Positions 19,712 to 57,932 of a DNA stretch of 64,000 bases are shown in pieces; position 1 is the first letter of the stretch; every line of letters starts with the position of its first letter. Under the pieces are notes generated by a model, which did not search any database, was not told where the DNA came from, and saw nothing but the letters and a program-made list of their open reading frames with translations. Origin of the DNA: Rhodothermales bacterium (lineage in GTDB: Bacteria; Bacteroidota; Rhodothermia; Rhodothermales; JABDKH01); assembly GCA_013002165.1 (NCBI GenBank), contig JABDKO010000027.1:425-64424 (forward strand), given 5' to 3'. Position numbers and translations under genes: made by a program.

Positions 19712-21031
19712 TCAGTTTGAAGCTGGCCCCGTATCCCATTTCTGTGCGCTGGATACATCAGGAACCCCCCAATCGGTTCCTCTCCATCCCTGGAAACCAT
19801 CCATTTTGAATGTCCAGAATCCCGTCGACATATCGCTCACGACGATGAGGCCGTCTGCGTTGCGTACATCGACGCCAAACGCGCCATTGAACATTGGATA
19901 CCGATCCGTATTGGGAGGGCCGATATACGTGTCGTAGTAAGCAACGGTCACAGGATCTGTAGGATCCGCAAGACTGAAAACCTGTAGTCCATCCAGGTAT
20001 CCGCTCACGAAGACATACGGCCAGCGTACCTCGTGATTATGCGTGAGATTCCGCCAATCCGCCGTCCAGGCACCGATCGGATTTCTGATATTCGTGACTT
20101 CTCCATCCAGAGCAGGCTTCAAATCAAAGATTCGGAGAGGAGCATACTGGTACTCAGTCTCTGCGACCGCGAATCTGCCATCTGGCGTAGGCGTGAAGGT
20201 GTGTCCGCTCGTGACACCGGATATTCCGGTCAACGTTGCAAGCAATTCGGGTGAATCCAGATTCGTGAAGTCATACACAAAATATCCGCCCCGACCACCA
20301 CCATAGAAACGGTCCTGGCCTGTTTCTTCATGATAGCCGGCATAGAAATCATGATATCCCCTGCGACCGTCTTCAGAGTTCGGCACTGGAATCTGTCCTA
20401 CCCGGGCATCGTCCATGTTGCCCTCTACGATCGCACCGAGGTCATATACCTGGGCAAACGCATTTGAGACTGTTGCGAGCAGAAGCACCTTTCCGCTGGA
20501 ATGCTTGTAGATATAAATGTTGTGGAATCCTCCGGGCATTTCAGGTTCACGTATCCGGGCGACCTCTTTTACCGTGCCGGGATCGGGCAGGCCGGATACG
20601 TCTAGCACAACCGCTCCCAAATCCGGATTAGGACCGCCCTGTCTGAACTGCAGCGACTGGACAACATAGTATTTGTCTTTCCATTTAAAGTGCTTGACAT
20701 CCATCCCTCCGGTGCCGAGATGCAGGTCCTGATTCTCAATCCGCCAACGATAAATAATCTTTGGCTTTGCCGGATCCGAGATATCAATCATATCGGTTCC
20801 TCGCGGACCTTCCGTGCCGTAGACCATCCGGGAGACATAGGCATACGGACGGTCGAGTTCCTGTTCGACATCCATATCGGCAACGCTTAGACGAGGTCCT
20901 AGTGGAATGTGACCAAGGACCGTAATGTTGTCACTCCCCGGTTTTTCCGCCGTCCATTGAGCCTGCACGTTCTGTGCAGCGACAATCATTAGTATCAGTG
21001 CTAATACAGGTATTACGTTTCTGCCAGTCAT
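19712..21031 (-). CDS. LVIVD-repeat (COG5276-like) secreted beta-propeller protein, paralog 1
   Basis: Start ATG 21031 gives the signal peptide MTGRNVIPVLALILMIVAAQNVQA. Repeat text: GTDMIDISDPAKPKII, GGYFVYDFTNLDSPELL, LQVFSLADPTDPVTV, ADGLIVVSDMSTGFW. Strongly similar to paralog 2. Confidence 0.65.
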   Translation of the reverse strand: MTGRNVIPVLALILMIVAAQNVQAQWTAEKPGSDNITVLGHIPLGPRLSVADMDVEQELDRPYAYVSRMVYGTEGPRGTDMIDISDPAKPKIIYRWRIENQDLHLGTGGMDVKHFKWKDKYYVVQSLQFRQGGPNPDLGAVVLDVSGLPDPGTVKEVARIREPEMPGGFHNIYIYKHSSGKVLLLATVSNAFAQVYDLGAIVEGNMDDARVGQIPVPNSEDGRRGYHDFYAGYHEETGQDRFYGGGRGGYFVYDFTNLDSPELLATLTGISGVTSGHTFTPTPDGRFAVAETEYQYAPLRIFDLKPALDGEVTNIRNPIGAWTADWRNLTHNHEVRWPYVFVSGYLDGLQVFSLADPTDPVTVAYYDTYIGPPNTDRYPMFNGAFGVDVRNADGLIVVSDMSTGFWTFKMDGFQGWRGTDWGVPDVSSAQKWDTGPASN

Positions 21032-21060
21032 GATGTACTGCGTTTTTCTAGTGAGAATCT

Positions 21061-22452
21061 TTACTTGTTTGATGGTCCGTTCTCCCAATCCTGGGCGCTC
21101 GACACATCGGGCACGCCGAAGGCCTCGCCGGACCAACCATTAAATCCGTCCATCTTCAGCGCCCAGAATCCGGTGGTCATATCGCTGACTACAATCAGAC
21201 CATCTGCATTCCTGACATCCACACCCCATGCTCCGTTGTAAATGCCCCACGTGTATGGACTGTTGATTCGACGAGCCTCACGATCGTTATGGGGTCCGTC
21301 GTACGTATCGTAGTATGCGACCGTATATGGCCGGGTTGGATCTTCCATCGAAAAGACGGATAGCCCGGTCTCATATCCTGATACAAACACATACGGCCAC
21401 CGAACTTCGTGGTTATGAGCCAGCGTCTTCCAGTCAGAATGCCACACCCCAATGGCGTGGTCAATGTTGTCCACTTCTCCATCAAGTGCCGGTTTCAGAT
21501 CAAAAATTCGGAGAGGCTGGTACTGCCACTCGGTCTCGCCGATGGCATACCGGCCATCAGGAGTCGGTGTAAACGTGTGTCCCCAGCGTACCCCTGGCAC
21601 GCCAAGTATGGTAACGAGAACTTCAGGTTCGGCGAGGTCGGTGATGTTAAACACATAGTAGCCTGAGCCACCGCCTCCATAGAAACGATCTTGTCCGGTC
21701 TCCTGGTGGTAACCGACGTAGAAATCGTGATATCCACGCGACCACATGTCCTCTGACTGGGGAACCGGGATGCGGCCAACCAGAGCACGGTTCTCGTTCT
21801 CGACGCGCTGCTCGATCTCGGTCTCAGACTGGTTCACTACGATGTCCAGATCGAACACTTTCGAATATTGGCCGGATGTCGCAAACAGAAGCGGTTTCCC
21901 TGTCGAGTGCTTGTATACAAAAATATTGTGGAATCCGCCCGGGGTATCTGATTGTGATATCCGCTCGACTTCGAAGACCTTCGACTGATCCGGAAGTCCG
22001 GTGACATCGAAGACAATTGCGCCGACATTCGCGTTCGGACTTCCCTGCCTGAACTGAAAAGACTGCACAAAGTAGTTGCGACCTTCGTGTGCAAAGTAGC
22101 GACCATCCATGGCGCCGCCCTGGTGCAGTTCAGGGTTCTCGATCCGCCATTTGTAGATCACTTTTGCATTGGAAGGATCTTCCAGATCAATGACATCAAA
22201 ACCGATTTCACCGCCGCGGCGAGCGACATATGCGTACGGCCGGTCCATGTTCTGCTCGATATCAACGTCTGCGATTGTCAGTGCCTCCCCAAGGGGAATA
22301 TGCGAAAGCACTTTCATGTTTGCGCTGCCCCTCTCGCCCGGAGGTGGTGGGTGGGACGGAGTTTCAATCTTTTGCGTCTGTCCTGCTGCCGATGTTGTCA
22401 CGAAAATCAGGGTCGCGAGTAACAGCGTTATGTCTCTGGCGTAAATGTTCAT
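21061..22452 (-). CDS. LVIVD-repeat secreted beta-propeller protein, paralog 2
   Basis: Start ATG 22452 gives the signal peptide MNIYARDITLLLATLIFVTTSAAG. It shares long identical blocks with paralog 1: GYHDFY.GYH.ETGQDRFYGGG, GHTFTPTPDGR, PLRIFDLKPALDGEV, HNHEVRWPYVFVSGY, GVDVRNADGLIVVSDM, GVPDVSSAQ. Confidence 0.65.
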   Translation of the reverse strand: MNIYARDITLLLATLIFVTTSAAGQTQKIETPSHPPPPGERGSANMKVLSHIPLGEALTIADVDIEQNMDRPYAYVARRGGEIGFDVIDLEDPSNAKVIYKWRIENPELHQGGAMDGRYFAHEGRNYFVQSFQFRQGSPNANVGAIVFDVTGLPDQSKVFEVERISQSDTPGGFHNIFVYKHSTGKPLLFATSGQYSKVFDLDIVVNQSETEIEQRVENENRALVGRIPVPQSEDMWSRGYHDFYVGYHQETGQDRFYGGGGSGYYVFNITDLAEPEVLVTILGVPGVRWGHTFTPTPDGRYAIGETEWQYQPLRIFDLKPALDGEVDNIDHAIGVWHSDWKTLAHNHEVRWPYVFVSGYETGLSVFSMEDPTRPYTVAYYDTYDGPHNDREARRINSPYTWGIYNGAWGVDVRNADGLIVVSDMTTGFWALKMDGFNGWSGEAFGVPDVSSAQDWENGPSNK

Positions 22453-22456
22453 CACT

Positions 22457-23773
22457 CTATCCACCGATTTCGTCCGGTCCGTTTTCCCAGTCCTGGACTG
22501 TTGATACATCTGGAATACCCCACCCGTGACCATCCCATCCCTTGAAGTCTTCTACACGTAGCAGCCATATTCCCGTTTCAAGATCTCCAACCGCAATAAG
22601 ACCATCGCGGTTGCGCACTTCCACATCGTATGCACCGCGGTGACCCGCGTTAGGATCGCAGTCGGTCTCGATCGTATTTGTACGAGCATATGCAGATGTG
22701 TACGGATTCTCATGATCTCGCATGTTGACCATTTGAAAACCGTCTTCCATTGAGGCTACAAATGCATAGGGCCACCGAAATTCAAACTGCTGCGCGAAAT
22801 TGCACCAATTTGCGGTCCAGGCACCAACAGCTGTCCGGATACGAGGAGCGTTGCCGTCAAAGACTGGCCGGAGGTCGTAAAACCTGAGCGGTGCAGTTCT
22901 GTAATCCGCCGCTGTCAGGACACCATTGCCGTTTGGTTCAGGCACTACCTTGTGTCCGTAAAGGATTCCTGCAGGATTGACCATTGCAAGAAGAGAGTCA
23001 CTGACTGGATTGGTGACATCATAAACATAATATCCTCCTGCACCAGCCGTGTACATTCGATCCTGACCAAGCGCCGGTTCGAAGCCGACAAAGACATCTC
23101 GAAATCCACGTAGCGAGGCAACGGGTTGCGCGGGACTGTCGATCGTAGCCACCAGGGCCGTATTTGCATCACCCTGAACCAGTGCATCCAGATCGTAGAC
23201 GTGAATTGCTGCGTCACCAGCCGTAAAAAGTAGTGCCTTCCCGGATGAATGCTTGTATGGAAACAGGTGTATAAATCCCGAACCCTCAAATGTTGTAATA
23301 CGCCGTACCTCGCGTGGTCCTGTCTCCCCGATTCTATAGATCACTGCAGCAACAGAGTTGCTCCGGGGCTCGGAGTGCTCGACTGCAACCACTGCATACC
23401 ATGCTCCGGCGGTATAAAATAATTTCACGTCCCTGCTTCGGGAAGTCGCCGGCAGGTCAGCGATGACCGCTGATGCAACGAGCTCGATGTCGCCGTCTGT
23501 CCTGATTCGATATGTGTCGACACCCTGACCATTTACCGACGGAGATGCCAGCAAGAGCGGCTGGTCTGGATCTTCTGACAGTGCCAGGTATAACGTACGG
23601 TCAAACTGACCGTCCTGTGCATCGACTGTGCGCTGAATCAGGCCTTCTACGGTTACGTTTCGAGTCGCCTGGATATCCTGGGCATGCAGCGCACTCGTGC
23701 CAGCGAATAGAAAGAGGAGTGTCAACGCCACAGCGGGCGAAATACGGATACGAGTCACAAATATTACCTGCAT
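22457..23773 (-). CDS. LVIVD-repeat secreted beta-propeller protein, divergent paralog 3
   Basis: Signal peptide MQVIFVTRIRISPAVALTLLFLFAGTSALHA. Collinear with paralogs 1 and 2 (PYKHSSGKALLF, GQDRMYTAGAGGYYVYDVTN, PLRFYDLRPVFDG, FRWPYAFV, DVEVRNRDGLIAVGDLETGIW, GIPDVSTVQDWENGP). Several His residues conserved in 1 and 2 are replaced. Confidence 0.6.
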   Translation of the reverse strand: MQVIFVTRIRISPAVALTLLFLFAGTSALHAQDIQATRNVTVEGLIQRTVDAQDGQFDRTLYLALSEDPDQPLLLASPSVNGQGVDTYRIRTDGDIELVASAVIADLPATSRSRDVKLFYTAGAWYAVVAVEHSEPRSNSVAAVIYRIGETGPREVRRITTFEGSGFIHLFPYKHSSGKALLFTAGDAAIHVYDLDALVQGDANTALVATIDSPAQPVASLRGFRDVFVGFEPALGQDRMYTAGAGGYYVYDVTNPVSDSLLAMVNPAGILYGHKVVPEPNGNGVLTAADYRTAPLRFYDLRPVFDGNAPRIRTAVGAWTANWCNFAQQFEFRWPYAFVASMEDGFQMVNMRDHENPYTSAYARTNTIETDCDPNAGHRGAYDVEVRNRDGLIAVGDLETGIWLLRVEDFKGWDGHGWGIPDVSTVQDWENGPDEIGG

Positions 23774-23827: not shown

Positions 23828-25093
23828 CTAATTACGAATGTGACCCGATCCGCGTCCTATCCATTTGTATGTGGTCAGTTCTTCGAGACCCATGGGACCC
23901 CTCGCATGAAGTTTCTGCGTGCTTACGGCCACCTCCGCGCCAAGCCCGAACTGACTTCCATCTGTGAATCGCGTGCTTGCATTGACATAGACTGCGGCCG
24001 AGTTGACGCGATCCACGAATTTTTCAGCGTTTTCCTCGTCTCCGGTTAGTATCGAGTCTGAATGCTCGGTACTGTGTTCGCGAATATGCATGATCGCTTC
24101 GTCCAGATCTGCTACAATTTTAACGCCGAGTGTCAGGCCGAGCCATTCCTTATCGAAATCGTCCGCACCGGCCTCTTCAACAACGCAACCATCCCCGGTC
24201 GATTGCAGCATCTCCAGAGCCTTTCCTTTTGCTTTCAGAACAACATCACTAAGTGCCAGGCGCTTGGAGATTTGCGGGAGAAATCTCTCGGCAACACTTT
24301 CGTGTACCAGCAGAGTATCCAGCGCATTGCACACGCTCGGGCGCTGGACTTTCGCATTTTCGATGATATCGAGAGCTCGAATACGATCAGCAGACTCATC
24401 GAGATAGATGTGACATATACCTATTCCGCCTGTGATTACCGGGATCGTCGCCTGCTCCCTGCAGAGATCATGTAGCCTTTGACCGCCGCGGGGAATGATC
24501 ATATCGACATATTTATCCAGACGAAGTAGTTTCTGGACATGTGACCTGTCCGGATCATCGATGTACTGGACGGCCTTCGAAGGTATTCCAGCCTGATCGA
24601 GAGCGTCCGAAATAATCTCGGCAAGTATCTTGTTCGAGTTCAGCGTTTCGGATCCACCTCGCAGAATAACGCTGTTGCCAGTCTTGATGCACAGGGTAGC
24701 AATGTCGACAGTCACGTTGGGCCGGGCCTCATAGATGACGCCAAGGACACCGATCGGCACACGACGACGCGAAAGCCGCATTCCGTTGTCCATGATTCGA
24801 GTGTCGATAATCTTACCGACAGGATCTTCGAGTTTGATAACATTCCTTGTATCTGCAACCAGGCCCTGGACGCGTTTTTCCGTGAGCAGGAGTCTGTCAA
24901 GGAGTGCGGGCGAAAGTCCCTTCCGTTTGCCCGCTTCGATATCGCGTGCGTTTCTTTCCAGAATGACTTCGGCGTTTCGCTCCAGTTGAACAGCGATCAT
25001 CTCCAACGCATTATTCTTGGCGTCGGTGCTCAGGCTGGATAGTTCGAATGCTGCTTCGCGGGCCAATCGACCCATTTTTACAAGTGATGTCAT
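23828..25093 (-). CDS. proA: Glutamate-5-semialdehyde dehydrogenase (gamma-glutamyl phosphate reductase)
   Basis: 421 aa. Full-length ProA-like text (...[27 protein letters not shown]..., ...[44 protein letters not shown]...). Confidence 0.95.
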
Positions 25094-49184: not shown

Positions 49185-50248
49185 AAGATCCCCTTGCTGC
49201 TTGGCAGTGAGTCGCCGTCTTGCCTGATAGCCTGCCCGAGAGCGCGGCCAAAACACTTGAACAACGACTCAACCTTGTGATGCGTGTTTTCGCCAACAGC
49301 CGACAAATGGACCGTTGCATGCATTGCAAATGCAAGCGACTGAAAGAAATGCTCCACCATCTCCGTACTCATCGTCCCGAGATGTTCGCGATCGAATTTG
49401 GCGTCAAATTTGATGAAGGGGCGGCCCGACAGGTCGAGTAGACATTGTGCAGAAGCTTCGTCCATGGGTAGAGCAAAGCCGAACCGTTGTATGCCTTTCT
49501 TTTCTCCGAGTGCTTGTCGAATCGCTTGACCCAGCACTATCCCGGTATCCTCCATGGTATGATGATCATCGATCTCGAGGTCACCGTCAACAGAGATAAT
49601 CATGCTGAAGCCGGCGTGCGTCGCAATCTGGTCCAGCATATGGTCGAAAAAACCGATGCCGGTCGATATTTCGCGGGGATCGTTTTCATCGAGGTTGATT
49701 TCGACAGACACGCGCGTCTCGTTGGTGCTTCTCTCAATCAACGCTGTTCGTCCCTTTCCGGTCAGACTGGAAACTATCTGCTGCCAACCGTTCGAATCAC
49801 GGTTGTACAGTACGCCCTTGATGCCCATCCTTTTTGCCAATTCGATATCCGTCTCGCGATCGCCGATTACCACAGACGTGCTTAATTCATAGGATCTCTC
49901 GCGCATGTACTGATCGACCAGGCCCGTTTCAGGCTTTCGACATCGGCACTTTTCGTCTGGAAGGTGAGTGCAGATTAATACCTCTTCAAAAGTGACTCCC
50001 TGTGACGAAAACGCCTCCATCATTTTTTGATGCGGAACGTCAAAACTTTCTTGCGGGAAGGACGCCGTCCCAAGTCCATCCTGGTTCGTGATCATGACCA
50101 GCGAATATCCCATCGACTGAAGTGACAACAGTGCAGGAATCACCATTGGCTCTAGAGATAGTTTTTCGAGCGAGTCGACCTGGTAGTTGTCAGCTGGCTC
50201 ATTGATGAGCGTGCCGTCCCGGTCAACGAAGATATATTTTTTGCTCAC
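49181..50248 (-). CDS. hisB: Bifunctional histidinol-phosphatase (HAD) / imidazoleglycerol-phosphate dehydratase
   Basis: N-terminal [12 protein letters not shown] (HAD DxDGT) with the C..C.CRKP zinc motif. The C-terminal IGPD text is GIGFFDHML...HH..E...I.LG.A. Confidence 0.93.
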
Positions 50249-51561: not shown

Positions 51562-52457
51562 GCAAGCATTTTTTCAATTGGAAGCACGAGGATAGATGTG
51601 GCACCCAGTTTTTGCAGTTCTTCCATCGTCTCCCAGAACAAATTCTCGCGGCTCACAACGTGAACGGCAACTTTGTCAGGCGAACTGGACAGTGACAGGA
51701 TTGTCGGGTCCTCGGCACCGGGTAGAATCGCGACAATCTCATCCAGGCGACTCTTTGGCGCATGCAGCATAATGTATTTGGATTCGCGAGCACTGATAAC
51801 TCCCCGAAACCTTGTAAGAAGTTTGCGAACAAGATCCTCCTGTTCATCTGAAAGGTGACGAGCTGTTCGAACGAGAACGGCCGTTGATTCGAAGATCGTT
51901 TCGACTTCTCTGAGGCCATTCGCTTCGAGGGTTACGCCCGTTGAGACAATATCACATATTGCATCTGCCAGCCCTGCCCTCGGTGCTATTTCAACTGCAC
52001 CGTTAAGGTCACATGTTTGAAAAGTCACGCCCTTTCCGGACAAATACGATTCGAGCAGGCGTGGATAGGACGTGGCAATCCGCTTTGAAGCGAGCGAATG
52101 AGGGCCATCGTATGATGTGTCGTCCGGCACTGCAATTGAAACCCGGCAGTTGCCAAAGTCAAGATTTTCGAGTTCTCGAAAGGCGCCCGAGCCTGCAGCA
52201 GACTTTCTTCCAAGTGCTGCCTCGCGAAGGACATTCCTGCCGACGATGCCGAGGTCTACTACGTCATCCATGACAAGTCCCGGGATGTCGTCGTCGCGGA
52301 CAAAAAGAACGTCGATTGGCAGGGCGTCACAGTGCGCAATGAATCGGTCCCGGCGTTTCCGAATTCGAAGACCCGACCTTTTGAGCAATTCAAGAGAATC
52401 ATCACTAAGGCGTCCCGATTTTTGAATCGCAAGCCTCAGTCTAGTTTTTGCAGCCAT
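51558..52457 (-). CDS. hisG: ATP phosphoribosyltransferase, long form
   Basis: Start ATG 52457 gives [32 protein letters not shown], close to the enterobacterial HisG N-terminus. A C-terminal regulatory domain is present. The ORF-track start 52511 would run through the terminator hairpin. Confidence 0.93.
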
Positions 52458-52470
52458 AAAAGTTGATTGA

Positions 52471-52502
52471 AATAAAAAACCCCCGGAGGTCAATCCCGAG
52501 GG
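52471..52502 (-). terminator. Intrinsic terminator of the his leader (attenuator), 13 nt upstream of the hisG ATG
   Basis: The minus-strand RNA is CCCUCGG-GAUUGACCU-CCGGGGG (7-bp stem, one G-U pair), followed by UUUUUUAUUU. Confidence 0.7.
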
Positions 52503-52575
52503 TACTTTCAATCAATGACTGTGACCGCTGGAATAGACCATAACATCATCTTCCAGCTCTGTTGGAGTCAGAAGA

Positions 52576-52614
52576 CTACATCAAATGATGATGATGATGC
52601 GTCCGGATGGCCAT
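52576..52614 (-). CDS. hisL: his operon leader peptide, 12 codons with five consecutive His codons (MAIRTHHHHHLM)
   Basis: Hand translation of the minus strand: ATG GCC ATC CGG ACG CAT CAT CAT CAT CAT TTG ATG TAG. It lies about 120 nt upstream of hisG and is followed by hairpins and the terminator at 52471-52502. It is too short for the ORF track. Confidence 0.7.
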   Translation of the reverse strand: MAIRTHHHHHLM

Positions 52615-52745
52615 TTCTGATCTATTGTTAGCGTCCATTGAACCCACAAGATATGATGACTGCCCATCACTTTGCAAATCTACCCGGCAGGATGTCAGCC
52701 TTTCGCCAGATCTTAATTTGTCAACCGACTGCCGCTGCCTTTATC

Positions 52746-53440: not shown

Positions 53441-55279
53441 CTATTTCACCCGGGACCGAAGCCACTCATTCCTGAATGCGATCTGCGTCTCGCTGAGCTC
53501 CATCCCTGCATCCTCAAAAGTGACCACTTCAAGGGTCATGTTTTCGGCGACAGGTACGGATGATGTATACGTGTCACCCCTCTGAGTATAGGTGATACTG
53601 ACTGTATCCCCCGGTGCGATGTCATCAAGCAGAGCACCGAGTTGTTCCAGATCAGTCACGAGCGTTTGATTCAACTGAACGATTGTATCCCCCTGACCAA
53701 CGCCGGCTGCGTACAGTGTCCCGGTTTCCAGAGTTGGACCTGCCACAATTACACCTCCGTCCTCTTCCTCAAGCTGGGCTCCAAGGAATGGCCGGTTGTC
53801 GTACCGCTGGCGAACGTGAAATCCTGCACGCGCAAGCAGGGTTGAATAATCGAAGGCCTCGTGCCCCTCGATGTAATTATCAAATATACCGTCAGCGAAG
53901 GCCCTGTCGTTCACGAGTTCGTAAAGTGCGTTGCGGAGGTCACTGCTAGTGAACGGGATCTCAGTCTCTCCATATTTCCTCCAGAGAAGCTGCATGTAGT
54001 GATCCAGAGTCGTGCCCGGAAATGCCGAGCGGAGCGTGAGATCAAGTCCGAGACCAATAGCGTTTCCGAATGTGTAATACGATATGAATGTGTTGTCGCG
54101 ATTGGTAGGATCGACGGATCGGGCAGCATCGACAAAGGGTGCCTGCATGCTCATTTCCCGGGCTGAAAAGTATTTCCGTCCGGGCAAGTTGACGACAGCG
54201 TTGACGGCCCCTCCAATGCTACTGGCAAACTCACTGTCCGAATTTATACCAGTTCGCCGCATAACCAGAGCCGTATAGTAGCTCGTAAAACCTTCGGAGA
54301 ACCAGAGCTCGCCGGTCATGTTTGCCTCTTCAAAATCGAAGGGCTCCAGATCACTCGGACGCAACCGTTCTACATTCCACTGATGAAAATACTCATGGGC
54401 AAGGGTACCCAGGTTTCTCCTGGCACCTGTGGAGAGCGGCCGTGTGCTTACGATGTAGGTACTATTCCGATGTTCCATACCATCGCCAGCGACGTGTGGC
54501 AGGTAATCGGCCAGAAAAGTGTACGTACCATAATCGTTTTCGGGTAACGCTTCGAAAACCGCAACTTCCTCGTCAACAACTTTCCGAGCCATGTCATAGT
54601 ACGTGTCAACTTCGACCTCCGACTCTGCGTGGTGAACAACCAGATTAACCGTGGTGGAACGATCACCCATCTCAACATTCCACGAGCGCACATCGTGGTC
54701 GCTTATCTCAATCGGGCTATCGAGAAAATAGTAGAGGTCTGGTGCGGTAAAGACGGTTTCGTTCGCTGTTGGCACCAGTTGTGTCGCGACTTTCCACGAC
54801 TCATTCGGAAGGCTAAACGAAACACGAATTGGTACGTCGCTAAACTGTCTCGCAAACATGAACGTCGCCGGTATATTGAGATGCGCGTGGGTCCGGTCAA
54901 TTCCCGAGTATGTTCCACCTGCACGATCAGCGAACAGTGTATAACGTAACACAACCTTGTTGCCCGTGGCAACGACATTCCACTGGTGCGGATTCGGGCG
55001 TTCGATATCCAGAATCGCTCCTGAACCATCGTGAGCTTCGACGCTGTAGACATTCTTCGCGAACTCGTGCAGTGCATAACGTCCCGGCGACGTACGACTC
55101 ATCCTGAATTCAACCAGCTCTCCACTACGAGTACCGTCAACTGTCATCGAGATCTCAGCTTCGTGGTGTTCAGGCCTGGGAAAAGACACATCGTAGGTCA
55201 CCTCTCTCTGGGCGGAAGCGGGGATGACAAGGATCGAAAGGGCGAGCACTATCCCGAGTACTGGTTTCATTTTACTCAT
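53441..55279 (-). CDS. M61 glycyl aminopeptidase-family metallopeptidase with C-terminal PDZ domain (secreted)
   Basis: HEYFHQWNVERLRP (M61-type HExxH context), signal peptide MSKMKPVLGIVLALSILVIPASA, and PDZ-like text ...YAAGVGQGDTIVQLNQTLV.... Confidence 0.85.
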   Translation of the reverse strand: MSKMKPVLGIVLALSILVIPASAQREVTYDVSFPRPEHHEAEISMTVDGTRSGELVEFRMSRTSPGRYALHEFAKNVYSVEAHDGSGAILDIERPNPHQWNVVATGNKVVLRYTLFADRAGGTYSGIDRTHAHLNIPATFMFARQFSDVPIRVSFSLPNESWKVATQLVPTANETVFTAPDLYYFLDSPIEISDHDVRSWNVEMGDRSTTVNLVVHHAESEVEVDTYYDMARKVVDEEVAVFEALPENDYGTYTFLADYLPHVAGDGMEHRNSTYIVSTRPLSTGARRNLGTLAHEYFHQWNVERLRPSDLEPFDFEEANMTGELWFSEGFTSYYTALVMRRTGINSDSEFASSIGGAVNAVVNLPGRKYFSAREMSMQAPFVDAARSVDPTNRDNTFISYYTFGNAIGLGLDLTLRSAFPGTTLDHYMQLLWRKYGETEIPFTSSDLRNALYELVNDRAFADGIFDNYIEGHEAFDYSTLLARAGFHVRQRYDNRPFLGAQLEEEDGGVIVAGPTLETGTLYAAGVGQGDTIVQLNQTLVTDLEQLGALLDDIAPGDTVSITYTQRGDTYTSSVPVAENMTLEVVTFEDAGMELSETQIAFRNEWLRSRVK

Positions 55280-56891: not shown

Positions 56892-57932
56892 TTACCGGAC
56901 TACTACTATGGGTGATGATACAGTTGTTCCGGAATCAACGACCGAAAGCATGTATAATCCAGCTGCCCATGTTGACACATCAATTCTTATCTGAAAAACG
57001 TCAGGTGGTACGACACCTTGATATACTACACGTCCCAGATTATCGTAGACCACAATATCTGAAATCCCGGACTTGACCGACGCAATGGTCAGATTGATAG
57101 TGTCTCCTGCCGGTAGAGGAAAGATGCCGGGGCGACCGGTAGCAGTTTCCAACGTTTCAATACTGGTAGGAATAACGTACAGACTAGCCAGCGGCGTCCC
57201 AAAATCAACTCCGTCTATTTGAGCGAAGACGAGAGTAGTTGTGAGCTGCCCTGTGGCTTCGACCATACCGATCCCGTGAGCAAACACGACTGAAGTATCG
57301 GAAACGACAGAGAACTTCTTTGTTGCTGCAACCTCGACCGGTTGCAGCATGCCGTCTACGGTGAACGAGACCGAGTCGCGAATCTGCCCTTCGACGAGGA
57401 TCAGGTCTGTCGTTTCGGAAGCCAGGAATCCGGAGTAGCACGATTGAAACGATGCAGAGAACACGATGTCTTTTTGACGCGGACCGATCGATCCATTAAC
57501 GACAAGCGATGAATCGGTTACATAGATGTAGTCTGTAATTAACGTGTCCAGGGAGAGAACCGAGTCGCCCGGGGCATGATAATACCGCGAGTCTAATCTG
57601 TAGTAAAAGATATTCTTGAAATAGGCATACCCGACAATCTCACTCCGTTCGGCAGAGATCAAAGAATCACCGTCTGTGACAAGATATTCCCAGATATTGC
57701 CGACCGCCAGTGGTTGGTACATTGTGGCCGACAACGTGTCCACAACTGCGACAGAATCCGGATACGGACAGTCCTGGCCAGCCGACTCCTGGAAAAGACA
57801 ACTATTTGCAACCCCGAGAACAAGCAAAATCCGGATCGAAACAGGAGCGAGTGCGACACGGCAATGGTGCAATCCTTTGATCATTGCTTCGGTCTTGTTC
57901 GCCAAAACACTAAATTGCGGTCTCTTCAACAC
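56892..57932 (-). CDS. Secreted protein with T9SS (Por) type-A C-terminal sorting domain
   Basis: The last 80 aa or so (...INLTIASVKSGISDIVVYDNLGRVVYQGVVPPDVFQIRIDVSTWAAGLYMLSVVDSGTTVSSPIVVVR) follow the T9SS CTD pattern. The N-terminal part is uncharacterised. A possible alternative start is ATG 57884. Confidence 0.65.
   Translation of the reverse strand: MLKRPQFSVLANKTEAMIKGLHHCRVALAPVSIRILLVLGVANSCLFQESAGQDCPYPDSVAVVDTLSATMYQPLAVGNIWEYLVTDGDSLISAERSEIVGYAYFKNIFYYRLDSRYYHAPGDSVLSLDTLITDYIYVTDSSLVVNGSIGPRQKDIVFSASFQSCYSGFLASETTDLILVEGQIRDSVSFTVDGMLQPVEVAATKKFSVVSDTSVVFAHGIGMVEATGQLTTTLVFAQIDGVDFGTPLASLYVIPTSIETLETATGRPGIFPLPAGDTINLTIASVKSGISDIVVYDNLGRVVYQGVVPPDVFQIRIDVSTWAAGLYMLSVVDSGTTVSSPIVVVR

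Follow-up and report, generated by a model that had tools for sequence, protein, structure and literature searches.

The stretch of DNA analysed here (64,000 nucleotides (nt) of contig JABDKO010000027.1, hereafter the window) comes from an assembly deposited as a Rhodothermales bacterium and carries, on its minus strand, a histidine biosynthesis operon preceded by a short leader that contains a His-rich open reading frame (ORF) and an intrinsic terminator. The operon has the order hisG-D-B-H-A-F-IE (52457-46479), and NCBIfam equivalog matches were obtained for every gene. hisG (52457-51558) encodes the long form of the protein with 299 residues and matches TIGR00070 (3.7e-54) as well as the HisG C-terminal domain. 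Directly after it, with no gaps in between, come hisD, a bifunctional hisB, hisH, hisA, hisF, and hisIE. hisC is missing from the operon; hisD directly overlaps hisB (50245-50248) in the window and likewise in close relatives, and no class I/II aminotransferase was seen among those window ORFs that were scanned. The order hisG-D-C-B was found in the next-nearest locus (L166, HisG 64% identical) and in gammaproteobacterial operons. It is highly probable, in our judgment, that the leader is a classical ribosome-mediated his attenuator, a homologue of gammaproteobacterial hisL that has been passed down along with a gamma-like hisG within a small lineage of the Fibrobacterota-Chlorobiota-Bacteroidota (FCB) group.

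The leader ORF (52614-52576, minus strand) was read directly as ATG GCC ATC CGG ACG CAT CAT CAT CAT CAT TTG ATG TAG, which corresponds to the 12-residue peptide MAIRTHHHHHLM and a UAG stop. Its run of five His codons (CAU in each case, 52599-52585, minus strand) is the proposed site of ribosome stalling under scarcity of His-tRNA. A run of five CAY codons occurred only once in the 64-kb window and in none of 100 dinucleotide-preserving shuffles. The stop codon and the hisG ATG are separated by a spacer of 118 nt, in which a G+C-rich terminator hairpin formed by ACCCUCGGG and UCCGGGGGU (52503-52479) precedes the U tract UUUUUUAUUU; the terminator ends 12-13 nt before the hisG ATG. The stem has nine pairs, of which six are G-C, and the terminator scan ranked this as the strongest terminator-like site within 43.5-52.7 kb. 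The predicted fold of the 184-nt leader had a z-score of -4.0 relative to shuffled sequences. A first-pass annotation of this DNA had described the 12-codon ORF with five His codons, the G+C-rich hairpin with its U tract, and a hisG starting with the ATG at 52457; the ORF was found exactly as claimed, the hairpin was present, and the identity and start of hisG were confirmed by the TIGR00070 match.

A large protein search revealed four closer HisG proteins, which were 70-75% identical, known from metagenomes only, and derived from different samples. The comparisons within this clade cover five sequences, namely the window and the loci L163, L164, L171, and L172. The leader peptides of the relatives, each terminated by a stop codon, were MTARNHHHHLM (L163), MVLRTHHHHHLM (L164), MTARIHHRHHLM (L171), and MTARIHHHHHMM (L172). 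These ORFs comprise 11-12 codons, retain a run of four or five His codons in every case, end in HHHH(H)[LM]M, and are followed by the same downstream blocks and terminator. Conservation of the His-rich mini-ORF, which the first-pass annotation had proposed to examine, was thus observed in four relatives together with compensatory changes in the paired regions. The terminator was found in all relatives, and the hisG start lies 19-22 nt past the stem in all five clade members. The order hisG-D-B-H-A-F without hisC was also seen on contigs of relatives, L161-L164 among them. The automatic hisG calls of gene 2735/2976 (L161-L163) and gene 4001 (L164-L165) were mis-started: one call had 328 residues and began inside the leader region, and another was truncated to 260 residues. 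The conserved hisG start restores 299 residues in both mis-called relatives.

The leader can be divided into segments named B to F according to the enterobacterial model, all on the minus strand. Segment B (52576-52569, GUCUUCUG) begins at the G of the UAG stop and supplies the 5' side of the first helix of the antiterminator. Segment C (52557-52548, GCUGGAAGAU) can pair either with B through 52555-52548 or with D through 52557-52551. Segment D (52539-52524, GGUCUAUUCCAGCGGU) in turn pairs with C through 52533-52527 in the terminating structure or with E in the antiterminating one. Segment E (52503-52488) contains the 5' arm of the terminator (52503-52495) and its loop and is held by D when antiterminated, and segment F (52487-52470) contains the 3' arm (52487-52479) and the U tract. 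Accordingly, the antiterminating structure consists of B:C (52576-52569 with 52555-52548) and D:E (52539-52524 with 52503-52488), and the terminating structure of C:D (52557-52551 with 52533-52527) and E:F. The GCUGGAA...UUCCAGC hairpin placed at 52557-52527 in the first-pass annotation was present, and the antiterminator pairing, which had been left open there, is now resolved as a fold mutually exclusive with the terminating one.

Thermodynamic folds of the whole leader always gave the terminator and cannot reveal a switch, whichever part was masked; folds of nascent, truncated transcripts were used instead. When the transcript was cut before D, it folded into B:C (-9.6 kcal/mol in the window), and the same result was obtained for all five sequences and for the enterobacterial reference L020 (Atlantibacter, peptide MTRVQFKHHHHHHHPD). 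When it was cut before F, the unconstrained minimum free energy (MFE) structure was B:C plus D:E, with -27.2 kcal/mol in the window and -27 to -32 kcal/mol across the five sequences and L020; in this fold of the window, D:E took up the whole 5' arm of the terminator. The energy of D:E in isolation was -17.6 kcal/mol. In the full transcript, C:D plus E:F won only once F had been added, again in the five sequences and L020. Masking of the stop codon and the following 12 nt, which mimics a terminating ribosome, caused C to switch from B to D and left E free in all five sequences, whereas C paired with B and D paired with E when only the ORF was occupied. The enterobacterial reference L020 behaved alike under the same folding procedure.

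These folds suggest the following course of events. When His-tRNA is plentiful, the ribosome would pass the five His codons, reach the UAG, and cover segment B. Since a ribosome at the stop covers B, C would pair with D, leaving E free to pair with F once it has been made, and RNA polymerase would terminate at the U tract, 12-13 nt ahead of the hisG start codon. When His-tRNA is scarce, the ribosome would stall within the His run, at least two codons ahead of the stop, so that B stays free. B would then capture C on its emergence, and D would capture E before F is transcribed; with the terminator blocked in this way, the polymerase would read into hisGDBHAFIE. The transcription start site, the stalling in vivo, the efficiency of termination, and the response to histidine are inferred. 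As to mechanism, the first-pass annotation had suggested ribosome-mediated attenuation of the hisL type, and the conservation of the mini-ORF, the terminator, and both pairings, together with nascent folds that switch with the position of the ribosome, supports this reading.

Next, the two structures were evaluated on the alignment of the five sequences, with shifts of ±1-3 columns as slid controls. In the terminating structure, 94.7% of the cells were paired as compared with 41-60% in the slid controls; in the antiterminating structure, the corresponding values were 94.4% and 44-65%. Three pairs were changed on both sides in each structure. Among the compensations were changes from C-G to U-A in both C:D and E:F and a change from U-A to A-U in D:E, where compensatory changes were found at three pairs. 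RNAalifold independently recovered B:C plus the terminator from this alignment. The B:C helix that it predicted was 96% paired in the five sequences, and the E:F helix was 98% paired in the relatives, with the compensation given above. The comparative support is consistent with both structures rather than proof of them.

A further element of the first-pass annotation was a GAUGAUG segment complementary to the His codons. The segment is indeed present at 52550-52544 (minus strand), inside the loop of the C:D hairpin, and the MFE structure of the full-length leader has it paired to the His codons. However, the corresponding columns (112-118 of alignment A1) were not conserved in the relatives; the segment is specific to the window, and its pairing with the His codons is probably incidental and no core element.

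Several observations weigh against an attenuator of the hisL type. First, the terminator state was always thermodynamically favoured on the full transcript regardless of which part of the ORF was masked, as it was for L020; hence, antitermination rests on kinetic, co-transcriptional assumptions, as in E. coli. Second, the alignment contains only five sequences, which makes the covariation statistics weak, and shuffle controls of the antiterminator reached 16-109 of 500 on most measures. Third, no conserved equivalent of the enterobacterial A:B "protector" helix was evident; in the Rfam alignment, the A:B protector pairs are marked as non-canonical. A helix between the 5' end of the ORF and segment D is a candidate substitute and was 87% paired, but it showed no compensatory change. 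Finally, the window falls under the curated threshold of the Rfam model RF00514 (His_leader), and L164 gave nothing at E<=1. A conserved CAUCA:UGAUG mini-hairpin found by RNAalifold may be another substitute for the A:B helix.

The gathering score of the His_leader model is 49 bits, an operational cut-off and not a mechanistic feature. Across the whole window, no match was obtained at this threshold; in a search of 601 nt, the leader (52600-52471) scored 33.4 bits (E=0.0014), which is in line with the expectation of the first-pass annotation that the model may miss it. Among the relatives, L163 scored 54.1 bits and lies above gathering, and L172 and L171 scored 47.7 and 34.7 bits, respectively; the clade thus straddles the threshold. 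For comparison, the scores of L020, L142 (Alteromonas), and L134 were 124, 69, and 60 bits, respectively. The opposite strand of L020 (2879-3004, minus strand) also scored 34.7 bits, about the score of the window on its true strand. Hence, scores near 33 bits need an ORF and its context to be given credence.

The leader was also aligned directly with those of Atlantibacter and Alteromonas. The blocks UAGUCUU, GCUGGAAG, and UUCCAGYGG, as known from enterobacterial hisL, are common to the window and these leaders, as is the CCGG...CCGGGGGUUUUUU terminator. As in hisL, the His run is followed by two sense codons and a UAG whose last base opens segment B, the B:C plus D:E antiterminator is opposed to the C:D plus E:F terminator, and the element is placed directly upstream of a long-form hisG. 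There are also differences from hisL. The peptide of the window has 12 residues, five His, and a Leu-Met end, whereas the enterobacterial peptide has 16 residues, seven His, and a Pro-Asp end; no conserved A:B protector helix was recognised in the clade; hisG starts 19-22 nt past the terminator stem without a Shine-Dalgarno (SD) motif; the operon is without hisC; and the host is an uncultured metagenome-assembled genome (MAG) of the FCB group. Because the blocks are common and stand in the same register, the comparison indicates that the element is homologous to the hisL attenuator of Gammaproteobacteria, though divergent from it, and not a convergent, independently evolved invention.

HisG itself was 69-88% identical within the clade and about 60% identical to every gammaproteobacterial HisG, as compared with 62-77% among the gammaproteobacterial proteins. 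In a neighbour-joining tree, the five HisG proteins formed their own clade outside the gammaproteobacterial sequences. Scans of GTDB genomes and JGI metagenomes yielded, among the matches listed, only proteobacterial loci with at most 62% identity. The named HisG loci among the matches listed were almost all from Gammaproteobacteria, with two from Betaproteobacteria, and nearly all had a His-run mini-ORF upstream. Metagenome loci with 54-57% identity that had been suspected to be from Bacteroidota turned out to be Alteromonas, Rheinheimera, Paraglaciecola, and Aliidiomarina. The operon does not differ in G+C content from the remainder of the contig, so that any transfer would be old. Taken together, the separate HisG clade and the matching G+C content suggest that the association of leader and hisG is old and does not stem from a recent insertion or chimera.

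Other genes of the window were used to assess the host. The M61 peptidase gene (53441-55279, minus strand) lies two genes upstream of the leader. The named proteins most similar to its product come from Gemmatimonadota/Longimicrobiales and Rhodothermales (52-57% identity, with Rhodothermales at 54%), and the gene also adjoins the leader and hisG on the independently assembled L161-L163. The clearest FCB hallmark in the window is a protein of 346 residues with a type IX secretion C-terminal sorting domain (56892-57932, minus strand; Por_Secre_tail, 34.4 bits), which is encoded 4.3 kb upstream. ProA (23828-25093, minus strand) was also considered as a taxonomic marker and set aside as uninformative or contradictory, its best named matches being Chloroflexota at 67-69%. 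We treat the host as a non-proteobacterial bacterium of the FCB group, with the depositor's Rhodothermales label taken as approximate; the M61 relatives and the type IX sorting domain agree with the non-enterobacterial, FCB-like context noted in the first-pass annotation.

It may be asked whether misbinning or a chimeric assembly has brought a gammaproteobacterial contig, or at least a gammaproteobacterial his region, into this MAG, in which case the leader would be an ordinary hisL. The best named HisG matches beyond the clade were indeed all Gammaproteobacteria, and the taxonomic label comes solely from the depositor's MAG classification. Yet the clade shows about 60% identity to every gammaproteobacterial HisG and branches outside them, the M61 peptidase gene is joined to the leader and hisG in separate assemblies, a type IX sorting-domain protein lies nearby, and the clade is distinguished by SD-less initiation and the loss of hisC. 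We therefore consider such an artefact most improbable. Somewhat less improbable, though still very unlikely, is a relic: a leader carried in by horizontal transfer of a gamma-type his operon that regulates nothing in this host. In favour of a relic, HisG and the leader blocks are gamma-like and the flanking genes FCB-like, and the Rfam score is down to 33 bits. Against it, the clade has kept the ORF with its His run and stop position, both structures, and a promoter-like motif, with compensatory changes, while its HisG proteins have diverged to 69-88% identity; moreover, the operon G+C content makes any transfer old.

The promoter-like motif (52677-52648, minus strand) consists of a -35-like TTGCAA (52677-52672), an 18-nt spacer, and a -10-like TATCTT (52653-52648). 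In each of the five clade members, the pattern TTGC-N19/20-TATCTT was located 63-95 nt ahead of the leader ATG; it appeared in none of 20000 five-way shuffles, with a chance of 0.00085 for a single sequence; this pattern was defined post hoc, after the sequences had been seen. The motif scored below the threshold of a generic sigma-70 scan. Its position makes it likely that transcription starts upstream of the His codons, and the predicted start precedes the leader ATG by about 27 nt. The sequence TAGATTTG (around 52681-52674) was examined as a Bacteroidota -7 box and dropped, as all five clade members share TTGC-N19/20-TATCTT instead. An in-frame ATG at 52638 (minus strand) precedes the leader ATG by 24 nt and could open a longer ORF of 20 codons (MDANNRSEMAIRTHHHHHLM); this ATG nearly coincides with the predicted transcription start. 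The conserved form is the short ORF, and L164 has an in-frame TAA two codons upstream of its ATG.

The region around the hisG start raised the question of whether translation of hisG, instead of or besides termination, is the main regulated step. In that case, the terminator hairpin and an extended stem would occlude an initiation region without an SD motif, and the leader ORF would control access to this A/U-rich region. In favour of this possibility, the hisG ATG is close to the terminator stem in each of the five sequences of the clade. An SD-like motif at -18 to -4 of hisG was found in none of the five clade members as compared with 83 of 90 proteobacterial loci, and the leader ORFs likewise lacked one. 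In addition, UUGAUUGAAA (52515-52506) is complementary to UUUCAAUCAA (52472-52463) on the minus strand, and the resulting extended stem, predicted in the window, would cover hisG -6 to -15. However, the conservation of this stem in the relatives was not clear, the hairpin and its U tract together make up a canonical intrinsic terminator, and the logic of B:C and D:E fits transcriptional attenuation. A translational effect would be an addition to termination and no replacement for it. We regard translation as the main regulated step as unlikely, and equally so a leader ORF that governs access to the hisG start.

Returning to transcriptional attenuation by a hisL homologue, a more far-reaching version can be formulated. 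A gamma-type his operon may have been inherited across phyla together with its attenuator and refitted to an SD-less host, with the tail of the terminator serving both as a termination signal and as a landing site for ribosomes, and with a new helix between the 5' end of the ORF and segment D replacing A:B. This proposal is tentative, and we think it rather doubtful in its full form. hisG starts inside the A/U-rich tail, and if the proposal were true, this arrangement would give a combined transcriptional and translational switch.

Naville and Gautheret 2010 stated that no leader peptide systems were known outside Proteobacteria and Actinobacteria, and then added a Bacillus his leader (PMC2965389). 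The Bacillus leaders, which lie upstream of hisS/hisZ paralogues, resemble the present element in combining a His-codon leader peptide with a terminator outside Proteobacteria. However, they have no sequence similarity to the proteobacterial ones, and convergence was favoured by the authors (PMC2965389); the present element differs in its homology to the proteobacterial leader and in the gene set regulated. Korolev et al. listed hisG leaders for gammaproteobacterial orders only (PMC4833913). Within the FCB group, the Flavobacterium psychrophilum transcriptome study by Guerin et al. 2021 speaks of "strong clues" of leader-peptide attenuation upstream of amino-acid operons (PMC9723704), and another article mentions pheL-like leaders for Bacteroides (PMC3082878). 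Leader-peptide attenuation has thus been proposed in the FCB group before. We found no literature on such leaders in Rhodothermales. The his T-box riboswitches of Firmicutes likewise sense uncharged tRNA-His to allow read-through of a terminator, but they bind the tRNA directly and have no leader ORF; T-box and other riboswitch models gave no match at the present locus. The abstract of Vitreschak et al. 2004 is said to mention attenuators in Bacteroidetes/Chlorobi.

The element represents no new mechanism: it belongs to a known family, as a divergent member, and only the host lineage is out of the ordinary. It would extend the his attenuator to an FCB-group lineage, where leader-peptide attenuation is thinly documented. 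The distribution of scores on both sides of the gathering threshold indicates that the curated Rfam model under-calls divergent members. Furthermore, the locus would provide a natural case of a mechanism dependent on the tight coupling of transcription and translation where translation initiation does not use an SD motif.

Two other regions of the window were noted for their gene structures. An ORF of 1008 residues (38067-41093, minus strand) combines an APH-type phosphotransferase, a peptidase M23, and a class III aminotransferase, which is an unusual fusion. Two adjacent, slightly overlapping ORFs (19712-22533, minus strand), encoding 474 and 490 residues, gave weak C-terminal matches to "choice-of-anchor B" domains, and this pair resembles tandem paralogues.

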